A stretch of 63,032 nt of DNA, counting the filler, from Hausera hauseri (taxonomy: Eukaryota): assembly GCA_046269625.1 (NCBI GenBank). It is 10 parts of 10 records of this genome, joined end to end, with 100 filler letters (N's around TTAATTAATTAA, not from the genome) between each part and the next. Parts side by side here need not be neighbours in the genome. Positions count along the whole stretch, not along the records: positions 33,294 to 37,452 come from JBJURY010729323.1; 9 more parts are not named here. The stretch is one strand, 5' to 3'. This document shows, piece by piece, positions 3,481 to 46,631 of this stretch. The notes under the pieces are model-generated. The model ran no database searches. It was not told the origin of the DNA and was given only the letters and a program-made list of their open reading frames with translations. The first letter of the stretch is position 1. Each line of letters begins with the position of its first letter. A program made the position numbers and the translations under genes.

Positions 3481-3513
3481 AGCTTGCTTTCATATTTCAT
3501 CCAATCGACTCCA

Positions 3514-5054: not shown

Positions 5055-5089
5055 GGCACTAAGAAAAAGAGAGACATTGGATTTTATTT

Positions 5090-5930: not shown

Positions 5931-5949
5931 GCCATTTGCCTGTCAAGAG

Positions 5950-17591: not shown

Positions 17592-17787
17592 GGTGGAGTT
17601 GTGGTGAAAATCCTGGCTACAAAGGGGTTGTGAGCAATTTAGAGTCACTTCGTCTCAAACCAGGTGAAGAAACCAACAGATCCCTGCTCCATTTAGACCT
17701 TGGGGTAAGCGGTTTTGCAATTTAAGCAGCAATATCAGTCTCTAGTGAAGCCACTGAGAGCTGACCTACCTGTGTAGTGAACTGAGC

Positions 17788-19965
17788 ATGGAAATAACTA
17801 TGATTAGACTGATGGACAGGGCTCCAACCCGACCACCACCAGAAGAACCAGAAGATCCAGAACCAGAGGGGATGATGCCACAGTCGACATGGCAACAAGT
17901 CAAACAAAAAATACAAATGTGTCCCTGGTTTGATGGAATCCCTTGCTTTGTATATTTGCTAGCTTTCACTGTTGGAGCTGCAAGTATGTTTTTCATTACG
18001 TTTTGGTTTATCTATCCTGTTTTAGCAGGAAGACCCCCGTTTTCAAACCCCTGGAAGGTTGACAGCGTGGTCACCATAAGAAAAAGAGGGAATAATGGAC
18101 AACGAGCGGACAGAAATCATTTCAAATCTCATTGTACTGAGGGAAAACAAAATGTGACGGTGGTAAAGGGTGAGACCAGCACAATAATGTTAAATCCATG
18201 TGAATATTTTAATTGCCAGTCCCAATCCCATTTGGGTTGGGCTACCATATATGTCTGTTGGGTATGGAAAGTGGAAAACTGCCCCATATGTAGATCCTGG
18301 GCACAGGCTGCCTGGACCACCGCGACCACCGATTGGGGGTACACCTACCCGGATGACCCCACCCAGCTAAAGAACAGACTGTCCCTCTGGAAAGTAAATA
18401 ACACATCTCCAGTCGTTTTCTTGCGCCTGTCTAATACTACACAGGCCGATGAGGGGTATTTTATGGTCTGCGCTGAAGTGTCAGGAACAGACCCATGTGC
18501 ACCGTGGTGGTTACAAATAGTTGATAAAGAAACGCCCACACAACGTGTAACGCAGGTGTTCACAGCCCTCTCAGTTATAACATACCACCCCATGTCCCCA
18601 GACTCCCCAAGGGAGTATCAATGGGATCATAACCATCCAATGTTGACTGGAAATAGATGGTATTCAGTTCTTAGGCAATTAACCGCTGCAGGTGGTGTAA
18701 ACACATCATGTTATGCCTGTACCTTGTTCCCCAGAGACAACCTTGGGGCGATGCCTGTGAAACCACACCCGCTGACCAAGGAACAGGTAGCTTGCACCAT
18801 GATGGCATTAACCCCTCCTTTCCAGAGAACAGACAGCGTCTGGAATTTAACCAGGGCTAACTTAACAGGCCCATGCTCACAATTTAGCAATTTGACAATC
18901 AGAACCCCCAGTGGTCAGAAATTCAGAAATAAGGAAATGAACTTATTCGCGCCATTAGGCTCAGTTCACCCTAACCACGCTAATATCCAACACCCAGTTT
19001 GTATCACTAGAAAGGCTGTAGGACGTCGAGTTTTCTTAGGCCATGTGGGAGGTTGTCTTACAGTTTACTACGCCACTCGTGAGAAAACCCAAACCCAGGG
19101 TTTGAGTTCTGGCCGGGAAAGGTTAGTTAACTTGACTAATCTGCTGAATTTGACCTTTCTGGCAGAAGGTGTCTGGCCCTCGGATGAAGGTGCGGGGACC
19201 CTGAGGGACAGCCTGTGGCTGTGTGGAGACCATTATCACCAGGCCCTACCATCTCTCTGGGCAGGGACCTGTGCTCTGGTGGAACTGCGTCCAGCAGTGA
19301 CCCTCATGGATCAGCTGGTATATTCAACGCACCATTACCCTCATTTTCAGCCCCGCCAAGACGCTCTACAAAGAGAGAAAAGAGATGAGAAAGTTGTTAT
19401 TTCAGCAGATACAAAATTTTTGAGTGGCATTTTGCCCTGGTGGGGTACTGTTAATAATGCCCACCACATCGACAAGCTCCACATGGAATTAGAAAACTTA
19501 ACCTCCTTAGTCACAGATGGCTTTACTGCCCTCACACCTTACATAGCAGCTTCTCGGAACATGTTAACACAACACCAGATGGCTTTAGACTTGTTATTTG
19601 CCTCGCAAGGAGGCCTTTGCCACGTCATCGGTGACTCTTGCTGTACCTTCCTCCCCAACCCAACTGGAAATATGTCCGAAACCATCGCTCACCTAAATTC
19701 CCTTTTAGCTAAGATGAAGGAAGAGGAACTTGATGTCCCGCAAGGGTGGGATTGGTGGGCCTGGCTCACGGGCGGGGGGTGGAAAGCATGGGTGGCAAGG
19801 ATTTTAGTCCCCCTAGCAATTTTTCTTTTGTTGGTCTTGCTTTTCACATGTTGCATTGTGCCCGCCGTAAAAAAATGTATCAATTCGCTGTTTTCTAATC
19901 TCTTTTACCATCATATCCAGCAGTATGCTGTGGTGACTCAGGAAGACGACGGGCTTGAATCCTGA
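17788..19965 (+). CDS. env: Gamma-type Env glycoprotein with long leader and Ig-like N-terminal SU region
   Basis: Hydrophobic signal-anchor at about aa 52-80, CYAC (CxxC), furin site REKR (19372-19383), ISD-like QHQMALDLLFASQGGLC, CX6CC (CHVIGDSCC), Trp-rich membrane-proximal region, TM helix. Confidence 0.95.
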   Translation: MEITMIRLMDRAPTRPPPEEPEDPEPEGMMPQSTWQQVKQKIQMCPWFDGIPCFVYLLAFTVGAASMFFITFWFIYPVLAGRPPFSNPWKVDSVVTIRKRGNNGQRADRNHFKSHCTEGKQNVTVVKGETSTIMLNPCEYFNCQSQSHLGWATIYVCWVWKVENCPICRSWAQAAWTTATTDWGYTYPDDPTQLKNRLSLWKVNNTSPVVFLRLSNTTQADEGYFMVCAEVSGTDPCAPWWLQIVDKETPTQRVTQVFTALSVITYHPMSPDSPREYQWDHNHPMLTGNRWYSVLRQLTAAGGVNTSCYACTLFPRDNLGAMPVKPHPLTKEQVACTMMALTPPFQRTDSVWNLTRANLTGPCSQFSNLTIRTPSGQKFRNKEMNLFAPLGSVHPNHANIQHPVCITRKAVGRRVFLGHVGGCLTVYYATREKTQTQGLSSGRERLVNLTNLLNLTFLAEGVWPSDEGAGTLRDSLWLCGDHYHQALPSLWAGTCALVELRPAVTLMDQLVYSTHHYPHFQPRQDALQREKRDEKVVISADTKFLSGILPWWGTVNNAHHIDKLHMELENLTSLVTDGFTALTPYIAASRNMLTQHQMALDLLFASQGGLCHVIGDSCCTFLPNPTGNMSETIAHLNSLLAKMKEEELDVPQGWDWWAWLTGGGWKAWVARILVPLAIFLLLVLLFTCCIVPAVKKCINSLFSNLFYHHIQQYAVVTQEDDGLES

Positions 19966-20077
19966 GTCTAAACTTTAAAGCTGATTTTTTTGTAACTCTT
20001 ATTTTTTGGTTCTGGACTTTATTATTCCGATGTACAAATTCTATCGTCATAAGTTTGACTTTCCACAGTTAGAGCAC

Positions 20078-20091
20078 AAACAGGAGGGAAA
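20078..20091 (+). promoter_or_regulatory. Polypurine tract
   Basis: AAACAGGAGGGAAA immediately before the TG that starts the LTR. Confidence 0.8.
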
Positions 20092-20587
20092 TGTGAAAGT
20101 TATCTAAGCAAAGTTTTGTGCCTAACTGTGCAGCGAGCTGTTTTTATTTTGTTTGTTTGTTTTTTATCTACATAGCCTGACATACCAGAACAAGCTCTTC
20201 TTGCCCCCTCTACATATTTCCTTTTCTGCCCGAAACTAGACACACACCCCATTCCCTTTAGCCAATGTAGGAGTGATCAAAATGTTTCTTGTTCTTCTCA
20301 CGCAATGTGTTTTCAAATGTTATCCCCTCCCCTCAGCAACAGTAAAAGTAACTTCATGCTGATTGGAGGGTTCTGTCTTTGCACAATCTATGCACCTAAT
20401 AAATATGATCACGCAGCCTCACGAGGGCAGAGCTTCTTTGGATCTTGACTGCCATTAAGTTAAGTACAACGAACCTCTCCCTTTGCAAAGCGTATCATTT
20501 CAAAATCTCACTCTGCCTCCTTGCCTCTTTTGTTGGTTCACCTGGGTTGTTTGTTAATTTAATATTTTACAGAGAAAATATCCAACA
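20092..20587 (+). repeat. Retroviral LTR (496 bp, TG...CA)
   Basis: Bounded by the PPT and PBS. Begins TGTGAA, ends CCAACA. Contains CCAAT/ATTGG boxes and TAATAAAT at about 20397 (TATA versus polyA role ambiguous). Confidence 0.85.
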
Positions 20588-20591
20588 TTAA

Positions 20592-20609
20592 TGGTGCCGT
20601 GGCCCGGAT
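20592..20609 (+). promoter_or_regulatory. Primer binding site, tRNA-His
   Basis: TGGTGCCGTGGCCCGGAT matches 16/18 to the complement of the vertebrate tRNA-His 3' end (TGGTGCCGTGACTCGGAT). tRNA-His priming is known for epsilonretroviruses such as WDSV. Confidence 0.85.
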
Positions 20610-20889
20610 GGAATAGATCCTACACTGACGAGCGGAGGAAGACGCGTCGAACCCAGTGCACGGGCAGACCGTTGTGTCTGAAGTAAAGACCCGGAGGACT
20701 CCGTTTCTTCACAGGCCGACGTTGTAGGTCCGATCCCACCTGTCAGTGTTGGATTATCTCCATCCACACTGGGTGACAGGCAACGGCAGAGAGTGAGTAA
20801 AAGACACATAAAGATCTAGGGTTGAAAGTTATTGTACAAAAAACAAAACAAAACAAAAAAAAATAGAATAAAAACTACAGTTTAGAATA

Positions 20890-21070
20890 GCCACCCAGTC
20901 GTCGAACTGGTTCGTAAAAAGTGTCGTCGAACACAGTAAATAGGCCGTCGAGCCGCCCAGTCGTCGAACTGGTTCGTAAAGAGTGTCGTCGAACACAGAA
21001 AACAGGCCGTCGAGCCGCCCAGTCGTCGAACTGGTTTGTAAAGTGTGTCGTCGAACACACAGAAAACAGG
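20890..21070 (+). repeat. Three tandem 62-nt leader repeats built from CGTCGA-loop hairpins
   Basis: Units start at 20890, 20952 and 21014. Hairpins CCAGT-CGTCGA-ACTGG, GTGT-CGTCGA-ACAC and GGC-CGTCGA-GCC. Confidence 0.92.
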
Positions 21071-21279
21071 AAGGACGTCGTCCCTTTGATGAGTGAATGA
21101 GGAATGCATGGATGAGTGACGTGACCGAAAAATAATCATCATATTCACGCGGAAACCTGACGAGGTCAACAGAAAAGTACATTGATTTTTATTTTTAATT
21201 TTAACTTTTTATTTTATTTATTTTTATTATTTTTATTTTTTTGATTGATTTACTTTATTTATTTCTTTATTTATTTGAT

Positions 21280-21799
21280 TCTCCTATAATTTTTGTGCTA
21301 ATTTCAACTACTCATATGTCGACATGTTCAGCTCATTTAGGACAATTGTGCTATGACTTTTGGTAATGGTGCAACTTTAGTTATTTGAAATATTTAGCCA
21401 TTTCTGCCATTTTTAGCCCATTGAAAATGAATGGAGCTTATTTTACATCCTTTATATCTTTAGATCTATTTACAATATTTCACTACTCCTTTCTCATTTT
21501 GGAACAGCTCAGCTTCCTTCAGGTTCCTTCTAAATTTATTTAAAAACTTTCAGCTAATTTCAGCTATTTCTTCAACTGTTTTGTGCTCTTTTCAGTTTTA
21601 TTCAGCTTACTTCGACATTCTTGTACTTCTACTGACTTACTTCTGCTAAATTTCAGATCATTATGCTCCTTTCAGCTAATTTTTGAACGATTCAGATATT
21701 TCTGCTATTTCAGATTTTTTCGGCTTTGTGCTTATTTTTGCTACTATCAGCTTCTTCTGCTATTTTAGCTACTATTAAGCTGTTTTATGCTAATTTCAG
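21280..21799 (+). repeat. Degenerate T-rich minisatellite in the retroviral leader (continues at 11682-11840)
   Basis: Recurrent GCTA(A/T)TTTCAG / TTTTAGCT units. Confidence 0.65.
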
Positions 21800-29115: not shown

Positions 29116-32079
29116 CATGGACGCAACAAAAAGCAACAACAACAACAACAACATCCTCTCAGCAACAACAACAACAAGAACAAGAAAACGTCAAGCATCC
29201 ACAAGCCTGAACGAATACGCGCAAAGCGGCAGCAGCAACAGCAGTAACAACAGAAGGAGGAGGAGGAACCACTCATTACCGTCAAATACGACCTAAACAG
29301 ATCGTATGTGGACATGAATGTGGACATGTCCGCGAACACAAAAACACAATAGAGCCATGTCCCGTCGGGTGTGCGAAACCGACTGGAAGCTGAAGTGCGG
29401 AAATTCAAACACTGCAGAATGCAGTATTACGCACTTGAAAAATTTGAAAACGTGCAAGGTGCTAGGAAACAATGGTACCTGTCACATCGAGCTGTGCCCT
29501 ATTCAGAGGATTCTATTGGCGACTTAGGCGAAAAGCTTGACGAAAAAATCGTCATTTGTACGGAAAAAGGCATGTATATCATCCTCGGCTTTATTATAAC
29601 AAAGTCGGTTGACATAATTTACCTGTCCGAACGTACATTCTTACCGACACCTGAGGCTCTGAAACACTTACATGCGATAGTGAATGTGAAAAATACTGAT
29701 GATGAATACTGTTTTCTATACAATATTCTAGAAGTATTAAAATATAACAAAGTGTCCAGGCAACATGCAAATTGTCCAAGTAAGTATCGGCAGCATTTTT
29801 CGGAACTGAATTTCGATGAAAGCTGGATGCCAATGAAACTAAAAACAGTTGTAAGATTTGAAGGGCGCAATCCGACACTGGCAAACAACGTGTTCCGGTA
29901 CAACACAATAGCTGAAATACCGGCAGATGACGAGATATACAAAAATCCATATGTGAATATAATCTACCGCAGTCGAAACCTGAATGGACAACCAATATAT
30001 TTGTTGTTGTTGGAGCAGAAAGAAAAGTTTCATTACGCTGCAGTGACAAATCTAGGCAGACTGCTGAACATGGCACATGACCAGTTCATCAAAAAACGAA
30101 TAGAATATAAATGGTGTCCTGTATGCTTACACGGATTTAGGTCACAAACTACATGGGAAAAGCATGTGACACTGTGTAGACAACATTGCTTAGAAACAAC
30201 AATGTACGTCATGCCCGTCAAAAAAGCTTTAAAATTCAGTCACTGGTCAAAAACAGACAGTCCGGCATACGTCGTATAGGCCGATATCGAAGAAGTTCTA
30301 CCACAGCATAACGTGTGTGACCAGATGCATGTTTCAATCGCGTCAGAATGCTGGTTGTGCCTACTAAAGCCGAAGGACAACCACAATACTATGTTTTCCA
30401 CGAAGGGAATTGTGTACATGATTTCCTATATCAATTCAAAACTACAGTGGAAACGGAAATCGCGCCGTGGTATCGAAATAATAGCACTAAACCCTTGGTC
30501 TGGGCAGGCGAATATGAACCGCTGCTTTTTGCTACCACTGACAAATGTTACCTCTGACACCACAAAATATTGCCGTTCGATGCAGAGGAACGGCTCGTAC
30601 TGGACCATGATCATTTCACCGGTCGATACTTAAGAGCTGCGTGAAACGCATGCAATTTGGCAAGAAGGGTTCGGCCATTCCTGCCGATGATATTTTATAA
30701 TTTTCGAGGTTATGACTGTCACCATATTCTGAAATAAGCCGTCACCGAATTTCCACACTGGGAGCTATCCATAATCCCAACAACAATGGAGAAGGACCTG
30801 TCCCTATCGGTACACATAAACCGGTTTATGGTACGGTTTCTTGACTTATTGTAGTTCCTCAAAGAGTCTCTAGGAAAGCTCGTAAGTGCCTTGCTAGATG
30901 TGCCGATAACGCCGAAGCAGTTTCCTGCGCATATTGCACATAACAAAGGTATATTCCCATATGACTTTGCTGTGTCATACGAGCGGCTTCAAACAACAGA
31001 GGAATTGTCGCCACGATGGGCCGGAATTACAGAGGACAAGTACCACAGAGCACAGGAAGCGTGGACAGAGCTCTGCTGCAGAAACATGTTGGAGTACATG
31101 CTCCAGTACCTGAAACAGGACGTGTACTTGTTAGCCGATGTGTTTCAGACATTTCGTGCTAAGGCGTTGGTGGAAGATAGGCTGGAGCCGCTAAACTTTT
31201 ACTCCATACCGGGGACGAGTTGGGTATCGGCACTAATATCGCTGGACAAGAAAATTGGACTGTTGCAAGACCCGGAAATATACCGACTATTTGATGTTGG
31301 TATTTGTGGAGGCATGTCATTTGTCAACAAGCATCAGGTCCGTGCTACTGATACCCCATCACTGCTGTATATTGATATTAATAACATATATGGCTGGGCG
31401 CTTTTGCAACCCTTGCCGTACCGTTCATTCGAATGGATAATGGATAAACAAGAACTGGATACATTGCCGGACAGTCTGCCAACAGCAGGAAACACGACAG
31501 AAAGCAGCTTAGTCGGCTACCTAATGGAAATCGATCTTTTGGTACCAGATGAGCATGTTACCGGCAAATGTTCGACGGCTGTTAGATCAGTATCGTTGCC
31601 GGTGACACAGCCAGCTTTTTCCTTGAGCCGAAAAACGTCAATCGCGACCAACGGCTCCGGAAAATGATGACAGATGGACTACTGGACACGTCCAATTACA
31701 CACAGAATCATCCGCTGTATAGTAACGCCATCGTGAACAAAATCGGCTGCTTCAAGGATGAAAGCGAAGGCCGTGTTCAGTACCGAGAATGGATATTCCT
31801 GCGCCCAAAGTGCTACAGTCTTTTACGGACTGTGGACCAAAAATGCGAGCAAAAGGAGTCCAGCTGAGACAGCCGGAAATCGACCACGTTGATTATCGCC
31901 GTATCTATGAAGAAGGAGGACAATCAAAGGTTTTTGTATCTCAAACGATCATCCGATCGATTAAGCACCAGCTGTATACGGTAACGAATAAAAAAGTCGC
32001 TTTATCATGCAATGATGATAAGCGTAAGTGGATGAGGCGAAATAAGAGTTGGGCGTACGGTCATTGGCGTTTGGAATAA
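29116..32079 (+). pseudogene. polB: Polinton-type pPolB, disrupted, with an internal deletion removing motif B
   Basis: IVNVKNTDDEYCFLY, CPVCLHGF..HVTLC, DHDHFTGRYLRAA (EndoVII-like), FYNFRGYD, KGIFPYD, YIDINNIYGW, AGDTASFF, IGCFKDE, FLRPKCYS, KKVALSCNDDKR..AYGHW. Confidence 0.9.
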
Positions 32080-32369
32080 AATAACACGTTTAGTGATCAC
32101 AAATAGTTCAGTGCAAACATGCAGTTCAGTCCAGTTAGATCATTGACATTTGTGATCTTTATTTTACATTCATCTGCTGTACATGTTTTTTATATATGAT
32201 CAATAACGTATTTGTACACTAGTTTTTGTCTTCTGTTTTATAACAAGGAAATGGGGCTTAGTTGGGTTATCGAAAATAAATTAAAAATGTGATTTTAATC
32301 AAAAACTCACATACTTTCCATTATTAANNNNNNNNNNCTAACAACACCAAAAACCAAAAAGAATATGTG

Positions 32370-32800
32370 AAGTCAATCCATTAGGGTAAACTTCCCTAAC
32401 TTCCACATTGGCGATTTAATACCGCGTAGTTCTTATATCCTTTCAAGTTCATTGTCAAGTATCCTTTTACCCCTTCCGTTGGCAAAACTGTTTTTTGTCC
32501 ACTCGCATTAACAATTTTCGCCACGTTGCCTTTAAGGAAAAGCGAGGATGTGTCCCGAATACCATTGGACAACATCAAATCATTATCCACTTTCTTCATC
32601 GTTTCCTCCAATGCATCTAAGTTACTGTCACCGATTTTCTTTGCCAATAGGCCATATTTTACCTGCTTCATTTTTATCGGTGTTGATAATTGCACTAGAA
32701 TGGGGGTTCACAGGAAGTGTAGATTGTACCCGTTGTACATTCTAGACTGTCTGAGGGAATGCGGGCCGTACGTGGACTCACTGTTGCTTTCTAAATGCAT
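32370..32800 (-). pseudogene. Frameshifted paralog of the conserved ORF at 40861-41298
   Basis: MHLESNSESTYGPHSLRQSR / LSTPIKMKQVKY..KGYLTMNLKGYK aligns with the intact copy. Same convergent position after polB. Confidence 0.8.
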
Positions 32801-33293
32801 ATTAAGGACAAAAAGAAAAAATGAAATGGACTTACTGCAACCTTGCACAATTGAACTGTCGGCTGCTGCTGCAGATGCTGATGTTTTGTTGTGCAGACAC
32901 TGTAGAGACAAAGTAAAATGAAAAGATATACATATTTATACCAAATCTGCTCAAATCGGTTTATTTCATTGTAAACAATGGACCAAATATGTACCAACCG
33001 GTTTGCTTTCATTAGACAAACAGTAGACAAACTGTCAATAACACCCGTGACGCCGTCTGTATTAACAGTCATTCATAGTAAATGCACCTACTACTCTCGC
33101 AATCATCTCATTATCAAGTACTTGCCACCATCGTACCAAGTCGGAAATTGATAATCCTTCAAAATTTTGCAACTGCGTCAGTTAATTAACTATNNNNNNN
33201 NNNNNNNNNNNNNNNNNNNNNNNNNNNNNNNNNNNNNTTAATTAATTAANNNNNNNNNNNNNNNNNNNNNNNNNNNNNNNNNNNNNNNNNNNN

Positions 33294-33780
33294 CTGTAAT
33301 ATCGGTGGTTTTCATGGATAAGTTCAATTTTTCGCTAATTAAACTATGTCCACCGAGCTGCAGACCCTTTGAGCGCACACTGACAGATTGAAAACCGCAT
33401 GACTGAGCGTCGGTTAGTGATTTAAATTGCAATTCAATTAAATGTTTGTGTTTTAGCACAAATCAATTGTTTAAATGAAAAATATAAACCGGGAAATATT
33501 GTCACTTGTAATTGTGAACGTGAAATGTTCCATTAGATTCTTGGACTAACTGCAAACGACTAGATGCAGGAGATTGTCTTAGTACAGTATAGTATATTCC
33601 ACTGTTCTCACGTATTGTTGTTGGTGAAAATGTAAATGTGAATTCCGCAAAAGCCACTTCCCAGGCTCCCTGGCGTAAATCGAGCTACTGGTCCAACGCC
33701 ATAGTCAACCGTTCAGCGGTGTTGTTGTTGTTGTTGTTGTTGTCATGTTGTGATAATCTGTTACTATCAAGTACCAAATA
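33294..33780 (-). pseudogene. Polinton penton N-terminal fragment
   Basis: NNTAERLTMALDQ*LDLRQGAWEVAFAEFTF directly downstream of the integrase. Confidence 0.7.
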
Positions 33781-34850
33781 AATGCTCATCAATCAATGTG
33801 CGATGCAAATATCTAACTCGGTGTAGTGTATCCGTGCCACTTGACAAGATATTGTTTATTAGAACCTTTGCTGCGTGAATGTAGAATTTCCTGAATACGA
33901 TACACATACGGTTTTTCCAATAGTATTTGCAGTTCCTGTTTGTAAAATTTGCCACGTATTTCGTCACAATTTTCATCTTCTAAAACGTGCATAACCGGAC
34001 CTTGTTTTGTGTTGATTGCTGAAATTCGGAAAACCTCGTCGTCCCAGTTTTGATTGAAATTCGTAATGCATGATATCGTACTCAGCTTTAAAATACGCAC
34101 ATAATCACCGATTTTATATTTTTGCCGTTTAATTGCCTGTCATTTTTGTTGATTGTTTTGATAAAGCCACATGTGCACATCATCGATTTCATCAACCGGC
34201 CGTAATCCATTGATTCCACGTTGTGTAAGATGATTGTGTGCATGAATAATATCCGGCAGCATTGTTTGCCTTGCTTCGTAAAGAATTTGCTTAGGCGACG
34301 ACGTTATGTCCGATTAAATCGTTCAACGATTGTCACATTGTATTGGGAAAACACCGAGTAGTGGTTTACGCCGAACCGTTTCAAGACCGCTTCAACGTGG
34401 GCGTTGTAGAATTTCTTACCCAAATCCGTTTGTAAATGCTTCGGTAACTGTTGTTGTTGTTGTATCAGTGTCTAAACTGCGTCGGCAATCTCTTTATCTG
34501 ATTTAGATTTCACGGCAATTGCACGTGCCAAACCACTAAACGCATCAACGCATGTCAGCACGTACCGATACTCATTGTTGATGCTGGCGTACGGAATTAT
34601 TTCCATCAGATCCATTTGCCATACATTATTTACACCCGCAGCATAGTATGAACGAGTTAGAAACCGCCTTCTTATCGGTTTGTTTAGGCTGTAAGATAAC
34701 TGTTTCCCGAGGCAACGTTGGGTCTGTTGCCGAGTCTGTTTGACAGTCATTGCTAGTTTGTCGACGCCAGTATACCCGACGGGATGACGCAAGTCGAACC
34801 ACACATCGCCCATCGTTGCCGTCGATGGTGTCGGTTTTGCTTGCATTACA
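33770..34850 (-). pseudogene. Polinton retroviral-like (rve) integrase with C-terminal chromodomain
   Basis: HPVGYTG, WQMDL, YVLTCVDAFS, LQTDLGKKFYN, VERFNRT, NWDDEVFRI, GKFYKQELQ, YRIQEIL..QYLVKWHGY. Confidence 0.92.
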
Positions 34851-34959
34851 ACAATTAGAACGAAACGTGAATGAAAGATTTGATAAACTTGGACAGAAAG
34901 ATGAAAACCATGCACCCATATCGTCGAATCATCATATACTTACCGTCATTGTTTATACT

Positions 34960-35292
34960 AAACTGTTCCACCCATGTGTCCACCCAGTAATGACGTGACA
35001 ACCGGTAGAACTGCACCAAAGAATCCGCCATCTTGCTGGTACATGACCTCTCGTTTCAGTAGTTTACTACGAGCGTTGGCAAGCCTAATGAATTGTTTTC
35101 GATACTTTAGTAAATTCCGCTTCCCACTGTCAATGTCAACGTGTAGAAAATTTCCATCAAATTGTCTACTACGAACTGTTGGAATGATTGTAACAAGTTT
35201 CGCTTATGTCTCGTAGGTACCTTGAGCAAAGCAATAAAGTACGTCTCACTACGTTTGAATCGCATTTTTTGAACGTATTGATGCTGAGACAT
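34960..35292 (-). pseudogene. Small basic Polinton virion protein ending in GG-F plus an amphipathic helix
   Basis: The frameshifted C-terminus reads KREVMYQQDGGFFGAVLPVVTSLLGG. Lies between the ATPase and integrase genes. Confidence 0.6.
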
Positions 35293-35479
35293 AATTGTTT
35301 ATAACCGTTGCAACTTAGACGGTAATTTGCATCTAGTTGCTGCTGCTGTTGTTCGAAGCACAAAATTAATTAATCGCTTGACTGTAGCTGTACGTTTTGA
35401 TACATGTTTCTTGCCGGACATCCGCTTGGTAGGTTTACGTTGAACGATTGTTTTTCGGAAATTCTTCATTTTATCACAA

Positions 35480-36063
35480 TCATGTCGTCGATTTTCGAAT
35501 TTGTTTATAGACACATACATCACTTTTGTGATTGAAAATATCCGTTCGTACACGCATGTCATCGGGACACTGTTGTGTAAAGTCAATGAACAAGTATCCA
35601 TGTGGCTCGGTCGTAGCATCATGATATGCATCTATCAAGTAGGCTCGATTATGAGGAAATGCTTGTCGTGCAACATAGTCAGTGATAGTCTTATCACGGG
35701 GAATTTTGAACAACACCAAATAGTGTACGTTTAGATTTCTTGTTCGATGCTGTCCGCCCTGATGGAACATGTTTTGAGTAAAGAAAATAACCGTCACACC
35801 ACGGTGTCGTGCAATCTTCCTGAACAGGTTGTTGAATTCCGATTGTTTCGTAGCTTCCTGAAATAAATCGTTGATAACAATAACGTCACAGTAGAGTAAT
35901 CTCTTAGACCATCATCACCAGAACCCTGATGCCAGTAAATGTGATTATATCGCGGTGAATAGAACATGTTACGGTAGTTCTGCAACAGTTTGCACAAAAA
36001 ATGTGTTTTGTCACTTCCACTTGAGCCTACAATATGGAAAATTGCATCATTCTGCAGCTTCAT
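35480..36063 (-). pseudogene. A32/FtsK-like DNA packaging ATPase, split and partly deleted
   Basis: IVGSSGSDKT (decayed Walker A), VIFFTQNMF..RTRNLNVHYLVLFKIPRD, DAYHDAT..PHGYLFIDF..MRVRTDIF. Confidence 0.88.
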
Positions 36064-36157
36064 CTAATAATATTAATACAATCTTTCCTCACATGATTTG
36101 ATTATGATCGTGTTACACACATATATAAATAGATATACTATAAACATTCTTTCCATA

Positions 36158-36620
36158 ATGTTAGCTAATATCAACTATCGCGAACGTTACCGAGTGTGAC
36201 ATTAACACACTACCTTTTAATCAATGGAAGCCGAGGCAGTATGTCCTCAAGTGTACACCATATTTTACGTGCATCATATTTCAATTGGAAAAGTGTCGTA
36301 TTATGGGTTGTCGCAAACTAATCACAGCCAACAACAATAACAGTAAACTACTATCATTCGGAATTGTCACTGAAAAAATCCAATCAATAACGGTAACGAC
36401 TCAGTTAGACTACCAAACAATCAGTCTGTACAAATTAGCAATAGCCAATAAATGTACGTATGAACCCAAACTGTTTTCTACACTGAAGCTGATGTCGTTT
36501 CGCCCACTTTGTGTCAATGTGTTTAGCAGTGGAAAAATTGTTGTACTCGGTACTCGGACAGTAGATTATGAACCTATTATTAATCAAATTAAAAACCACA
36601 TAAATATTTTAGTGAATCAA
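36158..36620 (+). pseudogene. TATA-binding-protein-fold gene (two repeats, one frameshift near the 5' end)
   Basis: Repeat 1: NINYR/..TCIIFQLEKCRIMGC. Repeat 2: IQSITVT..YEPKLFSTL..VNVFSSGKIVVLG, compared with TBP YEPELFPGL..LLIFVSGKVVLTG. Confidence 0.8.
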
Positions 36621-36683
36621 AATATTGTACATTACACAACAAACTATAAATACCATTCCCATGCTCATTTAGACATTGCTGCC

Positions 36684-37271
36684 ATGGAAGACGACGACGA
36701 CAAAACGATTCTACTCAATAATGCTTGTGCGAATGATGAAAGTTCGGATTGGCCGTGGTTGTTTGGTTACAAAAGTGATAATTCTAATGTCAAATTTCTG
36801 GAAACAAAAACAGAACCTGTCCAACAATTAGAAAAACCGTATGATTGTATGCAGGGCGATTGTCTGGAAACGAAAAAGGAATTTGCTCAGAAATCATCAG
36901 CAGCAAAACCGATGTTAAAAAGGCAAAATCCAATGATTGGAATACATAAACAAAAATCCAAACCGTCGTGCCAAATACAGACATTTTTACCGAAACAAAT
37001 TTTTCGCAAGTATGAAATGCATTTTCTGCAAACGCCCGTACTGAATTCATTGAATGATCCCGTGTTTCTATGTGCACCCAAGTACAGCTATCGTATAAAA
37101 TGGCTATCGGGTGAAAATTTGGATAAACTTTCTAATGCTATACATAAATTAAACGTGGATTTAAAGTTGAACGAATCAACCGTGCAACAGGAATCTGTTG
37201 TTTTATCGGCGCAGAAAAGCAAAATTATTTCATTTTATCGGTTGCGAAATTTGTCATGTACCCGATTATGA
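36684..37271 (+). CDS. Hypothetical protein, in frame with the TBP-like region and probably a separate gene
   Basis: gccATGG start context (MEDDDDK...) within the 328-aa ORF. No motif recognised. Confidence 0.4.
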   Translation: MEDDDDKTILLNNACANDESSDWPWLFGYKSDNSNVKFLETKTEPVQQLEKPYDCMQGDCLETKKEFAQKSSAAKPMLKRQNPMIGIHKQKSKPSCQIQTFLPKQIFRKYEMHFLQTPVLNSLNDPVFLCAPKYSYRIKWLSGENLDKLSNAIHKLNVDLKLNESTVQQESVVLSAQKSKIISFYRLRNLSCTRL

Positions 37272-37552
37272 TGGTTTAAAGTGTCGACTGAATATTGAAT
37301 TGCAAGGACACAAGGAAAAAGCCTGTATCAGTAGCCCGATTTGGCGTGTATCTGAATCACATTTTAGTTATCAATAAATTTTTGTTTTGTATTACCATTC
37401 TTCTCCTTCTTCTTTCAATAACCCAATTAACGAGTATAAATATACGTGTAATNNNNNNNNNNNNNNNNNNNNNNNNNNNNNNNNNNNNNNNNNNNNTTAA
37501 TTAATTAANNNNNNNNNNNNNNNNNNNNNNNNNNNNNNNNNNNNNNNNNNNN

Positions 37553-40500
37553 CGGGCGATCATTCATACCGACACCTGCAGCTCTGAAGCAGTCTCTGGC
37601 GGTAGTGAATATAAAAAATACTAACGACGAATACTGTTTTCTTTACAGTATTCTGCCGATACTGAAATATAACGAAATGGACAGATATAATGCATCTCGT
37701 CCAAAACATTATCAGAAATATTTTTCCGAATTGGATTTTGATGAAAGCTGGATGCCGGTGAAACTGAAATCCATTCCGACATTTGAATGGCGTAATCCGA
37801 CACTGATAATCAACGTGTTCCGGTACAACACAGTCGTAGGAATACCGGCGGATGAAGAAATTTACAAAAAACCCCCATGTGGATATAATCTACCGAAGTC
37901 GAAACCCAAATGGCTGCCCAATAAATTTGTTGTTACTGGAGCAAAAGGAAAAATTCCACTACATTGCAGAGACAAATCTGGACAGACTGTTGAACATGGG
38001 ACATGACCAGTTCATCGAAAAGTGAATACAATGTAATGGTGTCCCATGTGTCTGCACGGATTCAGATCAGCGACAAAATGGGAGAAACACATGACTCTGT
38101 GCAGACAAAATTCAACAGGAACAACCATGTACGTAATGCCACTCAAAAAGGGAGCTCCGATTCGGTGACTGGTCGAAAATGGACAGTCCGGCATATATTA
38201 TATATGTCGATATCGAAGTTATCTTACCACGGCAAAACATATATGACCAAAAAAATGTTCCAGTCGCCGTCGGTATGTTTTTTGTCCCAATAAAACCCGC
38301 AGGTCAACAGCAATATCATGTTTTTCATGGCTGGAACTGCGTACGCGATTTCCTGCATCAGTTGGAAACAATAGTAGAAACGGAAGTGGCACCCTGGTAC
38401 AATAGAAATAGCAATAAATCCTTGATATGGTCAGAAGAAGATGAACGCCTGACGTTTGCAATCACGGATGAATGTTATCTGTGCCACCACAAAATATTGC
38501 TCTTTGATGCAGAGAAACGGCTCGTACCGGATCATGATCATTTTACCGGTCGATATCTCGGAGCAGCATGCAATTTATGCATTTTGGCAAGAAGGGTTCG
38601 GCCATTCCTGTCGGTGATTTTTCATAACTTCCGGAGTTATGATTGTCACCATTTTTGAAATGGGTCATCAGTGAATTTTCGCACTGGGAGCTATCGATAA
38701 TCCCAACAACAATGAAGAACTACCTGTCCCTATCGGCGCGCATAAACCGGTTTCAGGTACGGTTTCTTGACTCATTGCAGTTCCTCATTGAGTCTCTAGG
38801 AAAGCTCGTAAGTGTCTTGCCGGATGTGCCGATAACGCTGACACAGTCCCCTGCGCATATTGCATGCAGCCAAGGCATATTTCCATATGACTTTGCTATG
38901 TCGTACGAGCGGCTTCAAACAACAGAGGAATTGCCTCCCCGATGAGCTGGAATCACAGAGGACGAGTATGATAGAGCACAAGAAGTGTGGACAGAGCTCG
39001 GCTGCAGAAACATGTTGGAGTACATGCTCCAGTATCTGAAACTGTACGTGTACTTCTTAGCTGACGTATTCCAAGCGTTTCGGGGTAAAGTGTTGGCGAA
39101 AGATGGGTTGGAACCGCTCAACTTTTACTCAATATCGGGAATGAGTTGGGCATCGGTACTAGAGTCACTTGATCGGGACATTGAGCTGCTGCAAGACGCA
39201 GAAATGTACCGCTTGCTTGACGGTGGCATTCGTGGCGGCATGACGTTTGTCAACAAGCATCACGTAACCAGTGATGATAACACATCAATGTTGTACATAG
39301 ACATTAATAACCTGTACGGCTGGCCGCTTTCGCAACCCTTGCCGTACGGCTCATTTGAATGGGTTGTCGAAAACCGAAATTGGATGCATTAATGGACAGT
39401 CTGACAGCAGCAGCAGCCGAAAACACGACAAAATTCAGCTCAGTCGGCTACCTGATGGAAGTTGATCTCACCGTTCCAGATGAGCTGCATGACGCTTTGG
39501 ACGAATTACCCTTGGCACGAATCAGCCATTGTCCACCCGGCGGCTCAACAAAAGTAAAGAAACTGCTCATGACGCATGAACCGAAGCTGAATTACGTGGT
39601 TTATTGGCGTCTGCTGCAGTTTTACATGCAGTTTGGTGTACGCGTCACACAGTTGTATTGTGCAATCCGCTTCAATCAGGCGCCGATATTACAGGCGTAC
39701 ATTGATGGAAATTCAGAAAAACGAGCCGCAGCTTGTGCAAAGTTCGAAAAGGACTATTACAAGTTGAAAAATAATTCTCTTTACGGCAAATTGATAGAGA
39801 ATTTCATGGAGCAGCTCAATGTGCGTCTGTGCAACAACGAAAAGCGGCTGGTTACGTACACAAGCAAGACTCAGTTCAGGCGGTCGTTGCACACTGCCGA
39901 CGGATTAGTCGCCGTGCTTCCCAACAGGGAAGAAGTAGTATTGGACCAGCCAAGCTACATCGGACAAGTAGTACTAAACTTGAGCAAGTTGCGCATGTAC
40001 GAGCTCCAGTATCGTGACTTGGCACGTTATCGGCAAATGTTCGGCGGCGACTGTGAGATCAGTATCGTTGCCACGAACATAGACAGCTTTTTCTTGCATC
40101 TGAAAAACATCGATCGGGACCAACTGCTCCGATAAATGATGGTAAATGGACTACTGAACACGTCCAACTACCCACCGGTTCATCCGCTGTACACCAGCGC
40201 GATAACAAACAAAATTGGCTGCTTCAAGGACGAATGCGAAGACCGGGTCCAGTACAGTAAATGGATATTTTTGCGCCCAAAGTGTTACAGTCTGCTGACG
40301 GACTGTGGGACGAAAATGCGGGCAAAAGACATTTGGCTGAAACAGACGGAAATAAATCACGGTGATTATCGCCGCGTTTGTGATGGACAAGAATACGGAG
40401 AAGATGGAGGAAAGGCTGTTTTCTCTCAAACGACTATACGATCGATTGAGCACAAGCTGTATATCATCACAAATAAAAAGGTTGCTTTGTCATGCAACGA

Positions 40501-40564
40501 TGAGAAGCGAAAGTGGGAGGGGCGAAATAAGAGTTGGACGTATGGACATTGGCGTATGAGGTAA
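37553..40564 (+). pseudogene. polB: Polinton-type pPolB, close paralog of 29116-32079, 5'-truncated by the contig edge
   Basis: IYVDIE, DHDHFTGRYLGAAC, FHNFRSYD, FLDSLQF, GGIRGG..YIDINNLYGW, YKLKNNSLYGK, TNIDSFF, IGCFKDE, FLRPKCYS. Confidence 0.92.
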
Positions 40565-40860
40565 CACACGCTCATTTCTCAGTAACAGAACAACAGTTCA
40601 GTCAGTACAAAGATGCAATTCAAATAAGTCAGCCAGGTCATTGACTTTTGTGACCTTTGTTTGTTTTACATTCATCTGCTGTACATGTGATCAATAACGT
40701 ATTTGTACACTAGCTTTTGTCTTCTGTTTTATAACAAGGAAATGAGGCTTAAGTTAGGTTATCGAAAAAAAACTCATATTACACCAAACCTCAAATACTT
40801 TTCACAACACAACATAACACAACACCAAAAGCTCAAATAAATTTTATTAGAAATAATAAA

Positions 40861-41298
40861 CTACAGTAAATTCGTTAGGGTAAACTTTTCCAATTTCCAC
40901 ATTGGCCATTTAATACCATACAGTTCCTTATATCCTTTTAGCTTCATTGTTACATATCCTTTTACCTCTTCCGTTGGCAAAACTGCTGTTTGTTTACATG
41001 CTGCACTCACAATTTTCGCTATGTTGCCTTTAATGAAAAGCAAGGATGCGTCCCGAATATCATTGGATAACATCAAATCACTGTCCACTTTCTTCATCGT
41101 TTCCTCAAATGCATTCCAGTCACTGTCAACTATTTTCCTTGCCAACAGATTATATTTTACCTGTTTCATTTTGATCGGTGTTGATAATTTCACTAGAATG
41201 GGGGTTCGCAGGAAATGACGATTGCACCCGTTATATACTCTGGACTGTCTGAGGGAATACGGGCCGTACTTAGACACACTGTTGCTTTCTAAATACAT
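40861..41298 (-). CDS. Conserved 145-aa Polinton-associated hypothetical protein convergent with polB
   Basis: Intact ORF from MYLESNS, conserved with the copy at 32370-32800. Confidence 0.7.
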   Translation of the reverse strand: MYLESNSVSKYGPYSLRQSRVYNGCNRHFLRTPILVKLSTPIKMKQVKYNLLARKIVDSDWNAFEETMKKVDSDLMLSNDIRDASLLFIKGNIAKIVSAACKQTAVLPTEEVKGYVTMKLKGYKELYGIKWPMWKLEKFTLTNLL

Positions 41299-41674
41299 GT
41301 TAAGGACAAAAAGAGTAAAAATGAATGGACTTACTGCAACCTGGCACAACTGAACTGTCGGTGTTGTTGTTGTTGTTGTTGCTGCTGCAGATGCTATTGT
41401 TTTGTTGTGCAAACATTTCAGAGACAAAGTGAAATGAAAAGACATCCATATTTCTATCAACTTTTGTTTTCATTGTAAGCAATATATATTTACTTTGTGA
41501 GTATTGTCACATCATAAATTGCTTCAATTCATCAATTATTTTCATAATTATTATTTTTTTTATTACTGTAACCTACCCGTATTTATAGCTCGAACTATTC
41601 AAATGACCAATATTGCGGACCTTGGTTACAGAAAGAAAGAAAGAAAGAAACAGAGAATTACGTATATATTTATT

Positions 41675-41965
41675 TCATGAAATATAGTCAATGCAAAGCC
41701 GCAGACATTTTTTGTAAGCACAATGTGGACCATGATCACGATACGGACATCGGATATTGTCAGGTACCATCGCTAGCAAGCTATTTGATGTTGATGTTGA
41801 ATACGTCGTCATGCGCAACTCGGGAAACTGTAAATGGAATTGTTTAAACTTTTGGCCATCAATTTGATTTCTAATGTAAAATATGGTGTTTTCAATGTCA
41901 AAACAATCACAAATTTCTCCCATAATACACTGCACACAAAACGTTGAATTGCCTTCATACCAATG
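41675..41965 (-). CDS. Cys-rich hypothetical protein fragment
   Basis: CVQC..CDC and CPY..HCAYKKC..C clusters. Open to the contig edge. Confidence 0.3.
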   Translation of the reverse strand, partial: HWYEGNSTFCVQCIMGEICDCFDIENTIFYIRNQIDGQKFKQFHLQFPELRMTTYSTSTSNSLLAMVPDNIRCPYRDHGPHCAYKKCLRLCIDYIS

Positions 41966-42792
41966 NNNNNNNNNNNNNNNNNNNNNNNNNNNNNNNNNNN
42001 NNNNNNNNNTTAATTAATTAANNNNNNNNNNNNNNNNNNNNNNNNNNNNNNNNNNNNNNNNNNNNTAAAAAATGATACTAATCCTGTATGAAATAAAATA
42101 GTTATGGAATATTTTGTGCTTTGCCATTTTAATCCGAAAATAACGCACGCACCCTGTATATATATAGTAGTAATTGTATGTTAATAATTTTGAATATAGG
42201 TTGTTCTGATAGATTTGAAAAAATTTTAAATCTAATAAAGTTTCATTCTCTCATTGAAATTTTTTTATTCTCTCATTGGAATTAATTATGAAGGGATTCC
42301 TACCAAGAGTATCCAAATTACAATGGTGTCAGAATGTTTCATATCATGATCTCATTACGGATTTACAGATTTTGAATATCTCATATGATGATCTCAATAC
42401 AAATAATCTCAGTAATTGTCTCAGTGTTGATCACGTACCAGCACCAATACTCAATCAAATAGCAAATTCGAAATTACAACTTATCTGCACAATGGAACAT
42501 ATTGTATTGGAATCAGTCTCATCATGGTATGATCGATGTACGAAAATTACCATAAGCACTGTTGAGCAACTCGTCAAAGATTTCGGATTGGATTGTGACT
42601 TCAACTTGGTTAAACAATACGCATTTAGTATGTGTCGGAATTTAACTACTGGTCTGTGTTTGGTCACTGCCCGTGAGATTATTGGTACGTCGTTGATTGC
42701 CAACGATAATTGTTAATTAGATGAGCCATCGTCAAAGTCCAATTTACTGTTGAATTCAATTGATTGTTTGACAGACAAATGATATCAGTAAG

Positions 42793-44812
42793 ATGACTTA
42801 CTCACACATGAATGGGGTAGAAAGTCTTTACGTTATCCCCAAATCTGCATCAATCAATTCAGTCAGCTCATCTATGCAAAATTCTCAATCTGTTGTTATC
42901 CGTTATCAGAATCCTGACTCATTCATCAGGCCTACCGATGAAAATCGTATTTTGAAAAACATTGGTAAATCTCATGACAACAAAAGTGCCTCATTTTCAC
43001 GATTATTTCGTCGGGAAAGTTCATTGGAAAATCTGGCCGAAGATATAACCGATGTGCATTGTTTGTCGAACACGACCATTAACGTTATTCCCGAATCTGT
43101 TAACATGACAGAAAACTCCAAACTCAACACTACAAAGAAAATTCAGCCTGGTTCCCGAGTTAGACGAACATTATCCTCATTATTTCCTTGCTGCACTATT
43201 CAGTCACGAAGTTTGAATTCATCTCAGAAAGGCCATTTTCCTGTCGAAACAACGTGTACCACAGAATCAGATAAAATGTCCAATCCATCCGTCAGATGCT
43301 TTACGGAAATCAAACCTTATATCAGTTTTAATTTTCTGAAATTAAGGAAGTTTCGCGACATATTTGACGAACCAGATGCTGCATCTAAACGGCTACAGCA
43401 GAAAATGACGCGAACTGTCGTAATGTCGCCACCAATGAGAGACGGAGACAAATCCGTCTCACCGACGAAATCCATTAAGTCCGATGATAATTTTCAGTCA
43501 GAAAATGGAGGCCCGAAAATGTCAGAGAGTAACTCGCATATCGATTTTATCGTCCCACGGCCAGAATAATTGTCGACAATGACGAAACCTGTTACTGGGG
43601 CCAATGCGTCATCAGGACCTAAGAAGAAAGTTATTTATAGTTGATCTCCACGAGACATTGGTTCATAGTTCATTTAAGACGGTGGAGAAAGCAGATTTCA
43701 AAGTTGGTGTAGAGATTGAAGTCCATACCGTGTACGTACTCAAACGACCTTATGTCGATGTATTTCTGCAGAAAATGGGCAGAATATTCGAATGTGTATT
43801 ATTTACGGCTAGTCTGGCAAAGGTATGTCATACGACACATTTGATTTGTTGTCATCACTATTGCAATTAGTATGCAGATCCAGTCGCCGATTTCCTCGAT
43901 AAATGGCGAGTATTCAGGTGGCGTCTATTCAGAGAATCGTGTGTATTTCATCGGGGGAATTATGTGAAAGATCTTGATATGTTGGGTCGTCAGACTGACC
44001 AGATTGCCATACTTGACAATTCTCCTGCATCTTACATGTTTCATCCGGATCATGCTGTGCAAATAACCAGTTGGTTTGATGATTCTCGTGATACTGCTCT
44101 ACTCGATCTCATTCCCTTCTTTGAGCAACGAGCCGTTAGTAAGTCTGTACCGACATTTCTGGCCACTCATAAACCACCATCACGAGCCACTGTACCAGTC
44201 ACTGTTATGATGGTGCCATTAGCTGCCTCATCAAATTCACAACAACCGTCGTACTCATCTTCCACTCCAATTGCCGATATTTCCCCTCCTCCTTCCTATC
44301 CACCACCACCTCCTAATGATACATCAAGTTCATCTGATGACAGTGCTGTTAGCATTTTCAGTCCAACATCATCATACTGCACAAAATTGCAGTCAGCTGT
44401 ATCAATGCCGAATGTTGTAACAATGGAAGGACAAACAAATAATCAATCTAGACCAGCACGTAGTGAAACTGACATCACGATGATTCAGCAGTTATCCATA
44501 ATGATGACATCATCACCAAATAGCAATTGCATCATCACAGATAACAAACGAATACGGCATCAACGTAGTCGCAGTTTGCCAACTAAATATCCACACATTT
44601 CCTTTACTCGTCTGATATCTCCTAGTCTGCCAGTGCTTTCATTCGGTCCTATGAACGTCATTGGACGTAAAAACGTTGCACAGATAAACAATAACAATAA
44701 TCATCGATTGATTCGTTCAGTCTCTTTATTTTCATCATGTTCTGATGGAATAATACATGCACAACAGTTGACTAATCGGGCATCATTACGAATGTCACTG
44801 TCGATAAAATGA
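42793..44812 (+). CDS. CTD small phosphatase (SCP/CTDSP, FCP1-like HAD) homolog, possibly inactive or pseudogenised
   Basis: [34 protein letters not shown], then a 48-nt GT-AG intron (43823-43870), then [42 protein letters not shown]. The upstream ORF has SSLFPCC, like the SCP palmitoylation motif, but is out of frame at about 43570-43590. Confidence 0.85.
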
Positions 44813-45149
44813 TGAACAATCACAACAACAACAACAACAGTTCAATTTGATCTCGGATTAATGATGTAATGTATGCGTGTGTATTACGTAACTCGAATGC
44901 AGCATCATCGACAAACAAAACAGAATACATTTCTGTACAAATATAAATATATAAATTTACTGTTACCACATATACATATTTATCAACTATTATTACTCTA
45001 CTGCAGTCGGACTAGTCACGTCGTCATGGACAGACATAATATATGGTTGATGACGACATGGGCAACTGTCGTTCACAGCACGTCTGCTGCTGTAATGAGA
45101 TTTTGTTATTTTGCTCTATAAACTTAGTAATTGTTTTCTTCTAATGTTT

Positions 45150-45325
45150 CTGTGTCTGTGTTTCTTGTGTGTTTGTATGTGACTGTGTTTGTGTTTGTAT
45201 GTGACTGTGTTTGTATGTGACTGTCTGTGTTTGTATGTGACTGTCTGTGTTTGTATGTGACTGTATTTGTGTTTGTATGTGACTGTTTGTGTTTCTCTCC
45301 ATGCTTGTGTGTCTGTGACTGTTTA
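45150..45325 (+). repeat. Minisatellite of GTGTTTGTATGTGACT-type units
   Basis: At least six imperfect 16-22 nt units. Confidence 0.85.
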
Positions 45326-46631
45326 TGTGGGGGGGATGCGTACCGATTTTCTGTTCATTATTCTTATTTGGATTTAAATTTCGTGTGTGCAGGAGGTTAC
45401 CATTTTTAAATTATTTTTCATATTTAATTGGTTACGTGGGCCATAAAATATCGATTAGATATTCAGTGATGCTAATACGACAATTTTCCTTAATCTGTTT
45501 ATCACCTTTAATTTCATTTATCTAAAAGCCAATAAAGTTGGATATTTTAACTGAAGTCTATATGGATATGCATCACTGAATTCATCATTTGGCATATGAA
45601 AAGTCTATTGATTCGTTGTGAAAACATTCGTTAAGAAGACATTTTACAACACGACAGTGGATTTAGGTTATATTCAAGTCATTTTGCCTAGGTCAATACT
45701 TTAATGTATTCACAATTATTGAATCGTATATTCGTCCTCAAATGGTCTTCATACTATTTTCATCAGATTTGAAAAATGAAAATGTATTTAATGACTGTGA
45801 AAGGAAGCAATGCTGTGGATTCCTTTATATATATATCAGATTGGATGGGAAATTAATCATGGATTCATTATTGGTCTTTTCTGCAAATGACAACAAATAG
45901 CACATTCAATATTTCATGCATTGTTTGTATTGAATTGTTATAACTTCTTTTGATATTTTGTTGACTAATATTTTTAATTTGCACAATAACTTACCCATTA
46001 TATTTGCACAATAAGTTAACAGTCCTTAATTGTGTTAACACAAAGTTTTGTTATCTCTCTCCCTCTCTCATCATCTATTTCATGCACCTTTTAAACGACG
46101 ATCATTTACTATCGTTATGATTCTACAGCCATGTTTTATCTCTACAGTCCATCGGTGAAGTGATGTAAACAATGAATCACAAAATTATTTGGATATAAAT
46201 ACATGGGAATTCGGGTAAAGAGAATCAAAACATTTGATAAAATCATCAACAACATTCAAATAAAACCATGTTCTCATGTTTATAATTCTCATTTAAAAGT
46301 TGACATTTCCTGCATCATTGAGTATTTCTGTCCTCATGTCATTTTAATAAATAATTTATAGACACACGCATAAACTTNNNNNNNNNNNNNNNNNNNNNNN
46401 NNNNNNNNNNNNNNNNNNNNNTTAATTAATTAANNNNNNNNNNNNNNNNNNNNNNNNNNNNNNNNNNNNNNNNNNNNATCAGTAGCCAACAAAATTTGCA
46501 GTGTAAATTCTCCATTTCACTGGATTTTTGCTGGGCACTTGCTGTGGCCTAGTTGTATTCTGATTACAAGTCATAAATTTAACTGAAACACCCCTTTCTG
46601 TTGATCACATTTAGTCATTTGTGCATAGTAC

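Follow-up and report, generated by a model that had tools for sequence, protein, structure and literature searches.

A contig of the Hausera hauseri assembly (GCA_046269625.1) carries a reading frame resembling the TATA-binding protein (TBP) beside a packaging ATPase gene, and the question it raises is whether a mobile element of the Polinton/Maverick (adintovirus-like) type has a basal transcription factor of its own and, if so, what this factor would be for. Our preferred answer, to which we give a probability of roughly 0.6, is that the locus represents the decayed remains of a Polinton gene coding for a minimal TBP fold (mini-TBP), the intact protein of which likely binds the box TATAAAC(A) and likely brings host TFIIB and Pol II to the packaging and virion genes, turning them on.

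Results

Gene layout of the contig and its surroundings

The stretch of DNA analysed (the window; 63,032 nucleotides, filler included) is made up of separate contigs with N-linker-N spacers between them. The mini-TBP gene lies on contig G000:C729323, which corresponds to positions 33294-37452, and only this part is contiguous with it, so that PolB and capsid pieces found elsewhere in the window need not come from the same element copy. On the contig, which also carries a retroviral-type integrase gene, the ATPase gene starts with its ATG at 36063 on the minus strand and the mini-TBP ATG occupies 36158-36160 on the plus strand, the two genes thus standing head-to-head across 94 bp, in line with the distance of about 95 bp from a divergent ATPase that an earlier note on this DNA had claimed (Table 1). 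The intact ATPase of a related locus (L044) matches Pox_A32 at E 3.8e-6 in Pfam, and the counterpart there of the small basic gene (L044:882-1217) shows a weak match to Adeno_PX (E 0.017).

Table 1. Features of the contig carrying the mini-TBP gene (window positions)
Feature	Position	Strand	Basis or remark
Retroviral-type integrase with C-terminal chromodomain, broken	33816-34846	-	rve E 7.8e-6; Chromo E 9.2e-5
TATAAAC box	34951-34957	-	between core-protein-like gene and integrase
Small basic gene, putatively core-protein-like, broken	34961-35292	-	tblastn to L044:882-1217
TATAAAC box	35297-35303	-	upstream of the small basic gene
A32/FtsK-type packaging ATPase, frameshifted	35480-36063	-	weak Pox_A32 match, E 0.024; tblastn to intact L044 ATPase
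TATAAAC box	35503-35509	-	within 3' end of ATPase gene; site shared with other copies and with distant elements
Divergent intergenic stretch, ATPase/mini-TBP	36064-36157		ATPase-strand TATAAAC decayed in the window copy
Ordinary TATA-type box TATATAAAT	36122-36130	+	27 nt before mini-TBP ATG
TATAAACA box	36139-36146	+	19 nt (start to start) before mini-TBP ATG
mini-TBP pseudogene	36158-36632	+	PF00352, E 4.1e-9; frame break at ~36180-36186; frame enters next gene without a stop
Gene after mini-TBP	36687-37268	+	C-terminal part in predicted T7 gp2.5/Enc34-type single-stranded DNA-binding OB-fold family (family alignment)

For the gene that follows the mini-TBP gene, sequence searches of the Atlas and the PDB returned no identity and a fold search alone provided one: the model of its relative L034:1788-2135 (pLDDT 91.2) superimposes on 5odk_A with Z 8.4 and an rmsd of 2.8 over 103 aligned residues. 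Genes of this SSB-like family occur in the window at 36687-37268 (+), 40864-41469 (-) and 32429-32949 (-), with two paralogues per element; the family often adjoins mini-TBP in metagenomes and has many unnamed look-alikes in giant viruses. Decayed Polinton fragments on separate contigs make up 1769-7288, 29377-32949 and 37554-41962 (PolB, protease, putative capsids, an exonuclease-like gene), the first of them being ~80% identical to capsid-side loci of the mini-TBP Polinton family.

An endogenous retrovirus at 11682-21799, with plus-strand ORFs at 12141-13523, 14790-17591 and 17788-19965, has long open frames: the gag-like one contains a zinc knuckle, pol encodes RT, RNase H, integrase and an MLV-type C-terminus, and env matches TLV_coat at E 2e-17. 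Identical repeats of 77 nt lie close to the two ends of its contig. Eukaryotic genes that are highly divergent and either AT-rich or poor in introns are found at 41966-46377 as well as on L175:844-1752 and L168; they include a NIF phosphatase at 43979-44809 and, elsewhere in G000, a TFIIB-like and a Brf1-like gene. Found beside a vertebrate-type retrovirus, such genes suggest that DNA of two or more organisms is mixed in the assembly.

A broken copy of a repeated gene

The plus-strand frame 36165-36620 passes the Pfam cut-off for TBP (36.6 bits vs 22.9), the match spanning residues 71-134, that is, the second repeat only. The ATG at 36158 belongs to a different frame, which closes after 13 codons. 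Since 49 of the 66 copies compared are separated from the window copy by a gap at ~36180-36186, the frameshift that had been suspected near 36180 is genuine. Several residues conserved in the family alignment are lost as well, including the second glutamate of the acidic pair for TFIIB. Judged by its sequence, the window copy is a pseudogene, unable to make protein.

Of the upstream signal reported earlier, TATATAAAT about 30 nt before the ATG, the position holds (Table 1) and the exact string does not: the core shared by 44 of 53 distinct intergenic stretches is TATAAAT, and the string is in part the slip of a neighbouring dinucleotide run. This box is most likely the ordinary promoter of the mini-TBP gene itself, used by host TBP, and not the special target of the mini-TBP. 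The TATAAACA box is retained in 38/53 copies of the Hausera hauseri family. Counted by eye among metagenome TBP genes, a TATAAAC box lies within 90 nt of only 1/30, and the TATAAACA box is possibly an autoregulatory feature atypical of the family at large.

Searching the genome with the DNA gave 1799 candidates, 40 of which were scored and, the window's own contig aside, show 86-92% identity, and searching with the protein gave 5001, of which 150 were scored (74-86% identity apart from the query's own place); both totals are search candidates and not copy numbers. Internal stops interrupt 30 of the 55 distinct full-length copies examined, and at least one more distant mini-TBP subfamily (38-48% identity) is present within the same assembly. 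Another repeated, decayed TBP-like family (L142, L143, L144 and L137 in G000; ~26-36% identity to cellular TBP), with one copy beside a retrotransposon-like frame, is unrelated to mini-TBP by tblastn.

A trimmed TBP saddle with a rewired DNA face

Searches and folding were done with a natural open-frame copy, unaltered (L008:1344-1820; P0001). The model obtained from an alignment of 82 sequences (pLDDT 91.4, pTM 0.84) retrieved TBP chains in all 44 Foldseek matches listed at E <= 0.001, the best at E 1.5e-9. Its structural alignment to human TBP reached Z 13.2 with an rmsd of 2.5 over 149 residues, the first unrelated row standing at Z 6.6, and 149-150 of the 159 model residues align to cellular TBPs. 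As modelled, mini-TBP is a two-lobed TBP saddle over the whole chain, which bears out the TBP-like fold that the earlier note had read from the sequence.

The resemblance to cellular TBP (PF00352; 1ytb, 1cdw, 7egb) comprises the two-lobed saddle, three of the four intercalating Phe, the C-lobe helices and the E-P-E-L-F loop. The differences are equally consistent: mini-TBP is carried by a mobile element, has ~20-25% identity to cellular TBP, is reduced to ~150 aa, lacks the N-lobe helices, has Pro in place of the first Phe and shows fixed polar changes on the DNA face. Both C-lobe helices are present in the model and the N-lobe consists of strands and short turns with no helix of 4 or more residues; alignment with canonical TBPs places two deletions that match the absent helices H1 and H2. 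F42, F107 and F123 (in the motifs IIF, [E/K]LF and NVF) occur in 82/82 family members, in accordance with the earlier count of three retained Phe, and the first intercalating position is Pro in 77/82. The acidic pair contacting TFIIB (C.L3.2/C.L3.4) is kept, with E103 in 79/82 and E105 in 81/82. Hence, of the features of a canonical eukaryotic TBP/TRF, the acidic pair is present and the full set of four Phe is absent, as are H1/H2 with their basic patch for regulators. Substituted positions on the DNA face are near-fixed in turn (R48 in 81, M50 in 82, N121 in 82, S77 in 78, N6 in 77 and P26 in 77 of 82), and T79 is also among the fixed changes; N6, R48, M50, S77, T79 and N121 are at positions that we take to face DNA in cellular TBP. 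Unnamed TBP-like proteins (P0113-P0157) lie between cellular TBP and mini-TBP, their N-lobe helices being shortened.

A Polinton gene under selection

The intronless and, in the window, broken gene could be thought a retrocopy of host TBP that came to adjoin the element by chance. Its surroundings speak against this origin. The ATPase gene is found beside mini-TBP at a fixed position in 60/67 genome loci, representing 56/63 distinct contigs, and 6 of the 7 loci lacking it end ~90 nt or less from the start of the mini-TBP gene. PolB shares a contig with the TBP gene on L006, L085, L087, L094 and L097, protease and TBP occur together on L152, and putative capsid genes accompany TBP on L086 and L152. 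The labels of putative major and minor capsid genes were assigned from size and order on L086, L152, L034, L039 and L044, with no Pfam capsid match. None of the contigs examined reaches across a complete element. Peptidase_C5 was identified by Pfam on L044 and DNA_pol_B_2 on a separate fragment of the window.

Relatives at 37-56% identity are carried by 37 metagenome loci, on contigs that independently link mini-TBP to ATPase, integrase and protease. The markers used there derive from L044 and L034, with ATPase and integrase confirmed by Pfam and, for L044, the protease too. A core Polinton gene is present on 10/37 of these loci and a core or accessory gene on 15/37; the 27/37 loci without a core gene are mostly short, and at lengths of at least 4 kb a core gene is found on 4/6 and missing from 2/6. 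Gene order around the TBP gene varies among lineages. Near metagenome mini-TBP (L028:4008-4316, L039:225-719), a dual-specificity phosphatase and a ubiquitin-conjugating enzyme are among the accessory genes. In IMG/VR, neither the TBP alignment nor an ATPase and two capsid-type queries found relatives, and no additional control elements were gained there. On the evidence of linkage, which the earlier note had named as a test, the mini-TBP gene belongs to a Polinton element.

A second Polinton type, apparently low-copy, was observed on G000:C45553 (L140/L141), with open PolB, integrase, ATPase and a PF21738 capsid; it has ordinary TATA boxes and no TBP match on the contig. Apart from C45553, the genome search for other Polinton types gave only fragments lacking a virion module.

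The family comprises 9 close proteins and 48 representatives at E <= 1e-30, one of which is a canonical TBP; intact relatives are stand-alone ORFs of ~150 aa. Among the metagenome pairs, the 54/435 with dS of 0.05-1.5 show dN/dS of 0.055-0.57, and all 20 with dS of 0.05-1 fall between 0.055 and 0.49, the pairs not being independent of each other. By these ratios the mini-TBP family is under purifying selection. The dN/dS of 0.57 for the Hausera hauseri copies (1485 pairs) is biased by the choice of best-scoring copies and was not used for function.

A quick tree of 70 rows unites 34 of the 36 that are labelled mini-TBP in one clade (SH-aLRT 95), and in it a branch with SH-aLRT of 100 splits the mini and intermediate forms from cellular TBPs, the latter including the assembly's canonical TBP pieces, which group with eukaryotic TBPs. 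The separation of the family from host TBP, which the earlier note had left to a tree, is thereby clear; the long branches make the donor of mini-TBP unreadable from it. Linkage and tree together, with a family found in unrelated elements and under purifying selection, rule out the host retrocopy.

A TATAAAC box ahead of packaging and virion genes

In the packaging/virion modules of five TBP-carrying elements, which are not fully independent since L036 is related to L044, TATAAAC is found on the sense and antisense strands 9/0, 8/0, 4/0, 4/0 and 4/2 times, compared to 1.8, 1.7, 0.8, 0.4 and 1.4 expected; shuffles reached the observed count in 0/200 cases for four elements and in 10/200 for the fifth. 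Within a window picked after the data had been seen (15-110 nt before an ORF start), 24 of the 29 sense-strand boxes are placed, with ~3.9 expected, and 24/32 ORFs of the five modules have a box, 8/32 being without. When three genome loci with no TBP gene on the contig are added, 29 of 38 boxes precede ORF starts (4.6 expected). Ordinary TATAAA[AT] subjected to the same test gave 5/23 (2.5 expected). The base after TATAAAC is A in 35/38. Some boxes fall outside coding sequence and others inside upstream genes, there in two different reading frames, and they are therefore not merely a protein motif.

The box ahead of the ATPase gene is kept in 41/53 distinct intergenic stretches of the Hausera hauseri family, and TATAAAC recurs ahead of core-protein-like, PX-like, major-capsid-like and exonuclease-like genes. 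The window copy has lost its pre-ATPase box and retains three other boxes on the minus strand. The control is a single, incomplete contig of 12.2 kb from a Polinton of a different type, with a PF21738 capsid and no TBP match along its length; TATAAAC stands there before 0/7 distinct ORFs and TATAAA[AT] before 5/7.

These placements have a different explanation if mini-TBP replaces host TBP at every promoter of the element, as a general factor resistant to control, with TATAAAC read by host TBP or a forkhead-type factor and box and gene only co-inherited. Such a scenario, unlikely in our judgement, takes account of the TBP gene of the Hausera hauseri family bearing both box types, of the control being a single element, and of the sequence ATAAACA, which also fits the consensus site of forkhead factors. 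Moreover, in the solved structure 1qn3 wild-type plant TBP is bound to the adenovirus TATA box with C at -25, so that a host-type TBP is able to bind a box of this kind. The scenario is disfavoured by boxes that are strand-polar and placed like core promoters, unlike orientation-free enhancer sites, and the fixed substitutions on the DNA face would be needless for the role it assigns to the protein.

Discussion

Proposed mechanism

Mini-TBP as a reader of TATAAAC for packaging and virion genes, the reading we prefer, can be laid out in steps. Expression would start early, driven by an ordinary TATA box, in an arm that the gene shares with the SSB-like genes and PolB, although the TATAAAC box that the mini-TBP gene has for itself in the Hausera hauseri family (38/53) blurs the division into early and late. 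The rewired concave face of the protein would prefer TATAAAC. The N-lobe of cellular TBP is turned towards the 3' end of the box, where the Phe pair of this lobe kinks the DNA. The N-lobe is also the most altered lobe of mini-TBP, and the altered lobe would consequently meet the altered base (C). The retained E-P-E loop would dock TFIIB of the host, a partner suggested by the finding of no TFIIB borne by the element: a Pfam search for TFIIB in the genome gave 23 candidates vs 5001 for mini-TBP, and none was present among 44 neighbour proteins. Loss of the N-lobe helices would entail loss of the basic patch, borne by the longer of the two, for Mot1/BTAF1, TAF1, TFIIA and Brf1, and we propose that mini-TBP, relieved of this patch, escapes host control and acts outside TFIID.

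Two other roles for the protein draw on the same residue pattern. As a decoy or dominant-negative factor, mini-TBP would titrate host TFIIB or block host TATA promoters (host shut-off) with no activation of element genes; a truncated competitor might well look like it, with the TFIIB loop retained, the TFIID/TFIIA-side helices gone and one Phe lost. We consider this improbable, because it leaves the element's own variant box unexplained and because a DNA face both invariant and rewired suggests that the protein reads DNA specifically. The earlier note had offered both possibilities, a factor steering Pol II to late promoters or a decoy; strand- and position-biased TATAAAC before packaging-side genes strengthens the former, and the decoy comes out weaker. 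Alternatively, the TBP fold could have been co-opted for DNA bending in replication or packaging and not for transcription, a role that would suit a gene with SSB-like neighbours and with PolB close by on several contigs. It is rendered very improbable by the near-invariance of both glutamates contacting TFIIB and by the location of the boxes ahead of ORF starts.

The recruitment of host TFIIB and Pol II to TATAAAC promoters may be taken further. A whole Polinton lineage would then have a one-protein switch for late transcription: a minimal TBP, its N-lobe trimmed and rewired in step with its own TATAAAC box, would engage TFIIB and Pol II of the host directly, independent of TFIID and beyond Mot1/NC2. 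We put this forward tentatively, at slightly less than even odds.

Relation to known viral TBP systems

The nearest functional precedent is in herpesviruses. According to the available part of PMC4893493, the TBP mimics BcRF1/ORF24/UL87 of beta/gamma-herpesviruses pair with a TATT late box; they are large, have ~10% identity to TBP and work in a six-protein viral complex. The analogy would lie in a DNA virus of the nucleus that encodes no RNA polymerase and uses a TBP-fold protein with a variant late TATA box. Mini-TBP, in contrast, is a shortened TBP and nothing more, equipped with a TFIIB loop; no other viral transcription factor was identified with it, and as a stand-alone protein of ~150 aa it lacks the defining form of a UL87-type vPIC component, a large protein in a six-gene complex. 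The best reading is that the herpesvirus mimics are a functional analogue of mini-TBP, not a shown relative.

The accessible text of Ravarani et al. 2020 (PMC7221094), in which the words polinton and adintovirus are absent, gives human E284/E286 as TFIIB contacts and states that TFIIA, TAF1, Brf1 and BTAF1/Mot1 bind the basic patch on H2 of the N-lobe. It describes viral TBPs as mostly losing the acidic pair, the first glutamate being ~40% conserved, and as coming with a viral TFIIB. As far as this text and the BFVD matches go, the TBPs of NCLDVs resemble mini-TBP in being a viral TBP fold with the N-lobe regulator signature lost; they differ in mostly having a viral TFIIB and a variable acidic loop, whereas mini-TBP has both glutamates kept, H2 deleted and no element-borne TFIIB found.

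A TBP-like gene on Polinton-related elements has an antecedent in Starrett et al. 2021 (PMC8502044; preprint 10.1101/697771), where the accessible text has 'TBP' in the legend of Fig. 5 for MELD viruses with adintovirus-like PolB. The label belongs to the section on non-animal datasets and is a legend entry without analysis, in the parts available, and the gene so labelled is a candidate relative of mini-TBP; the visible part of the supplement contains no TBP text or mini-TBP motifs. The available portions of PMC12220804 and PMC10675990 hold nothing on a Polinton TBP. Within the literature covered, which included few subscription papers and some sources in part, we found no account of a mini-TBP family in Polintons, of the deletions in it or of a TATAAAC box. 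On sequence grounds, mini-TBP is real and element-borne, and it would be a variant of viral TBP-based transcription control, for which a specific mechanism is proposed here.

Biological significance

The window copy is dead, and the value of the finding rests with the family. A dedicated TBP with a matching box would offer a handle on the timing of Polinton capsid genes and on independent virion production, and TATAAAC is a candidate sequence marker for Polinton late genes. In separating the DNA face and the TFIIB loop from the regulator-binding helices, mini-TBP constitutes a natural deletion experiment on TBP, and protein and box together may be a ready-made TBP/box pair of altered specificity. 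If the one-protein switch is true, it would be the smallest known viral system of promoter specificity and would provide evidence for a staged, virion-making cycle of the Polintons' own.
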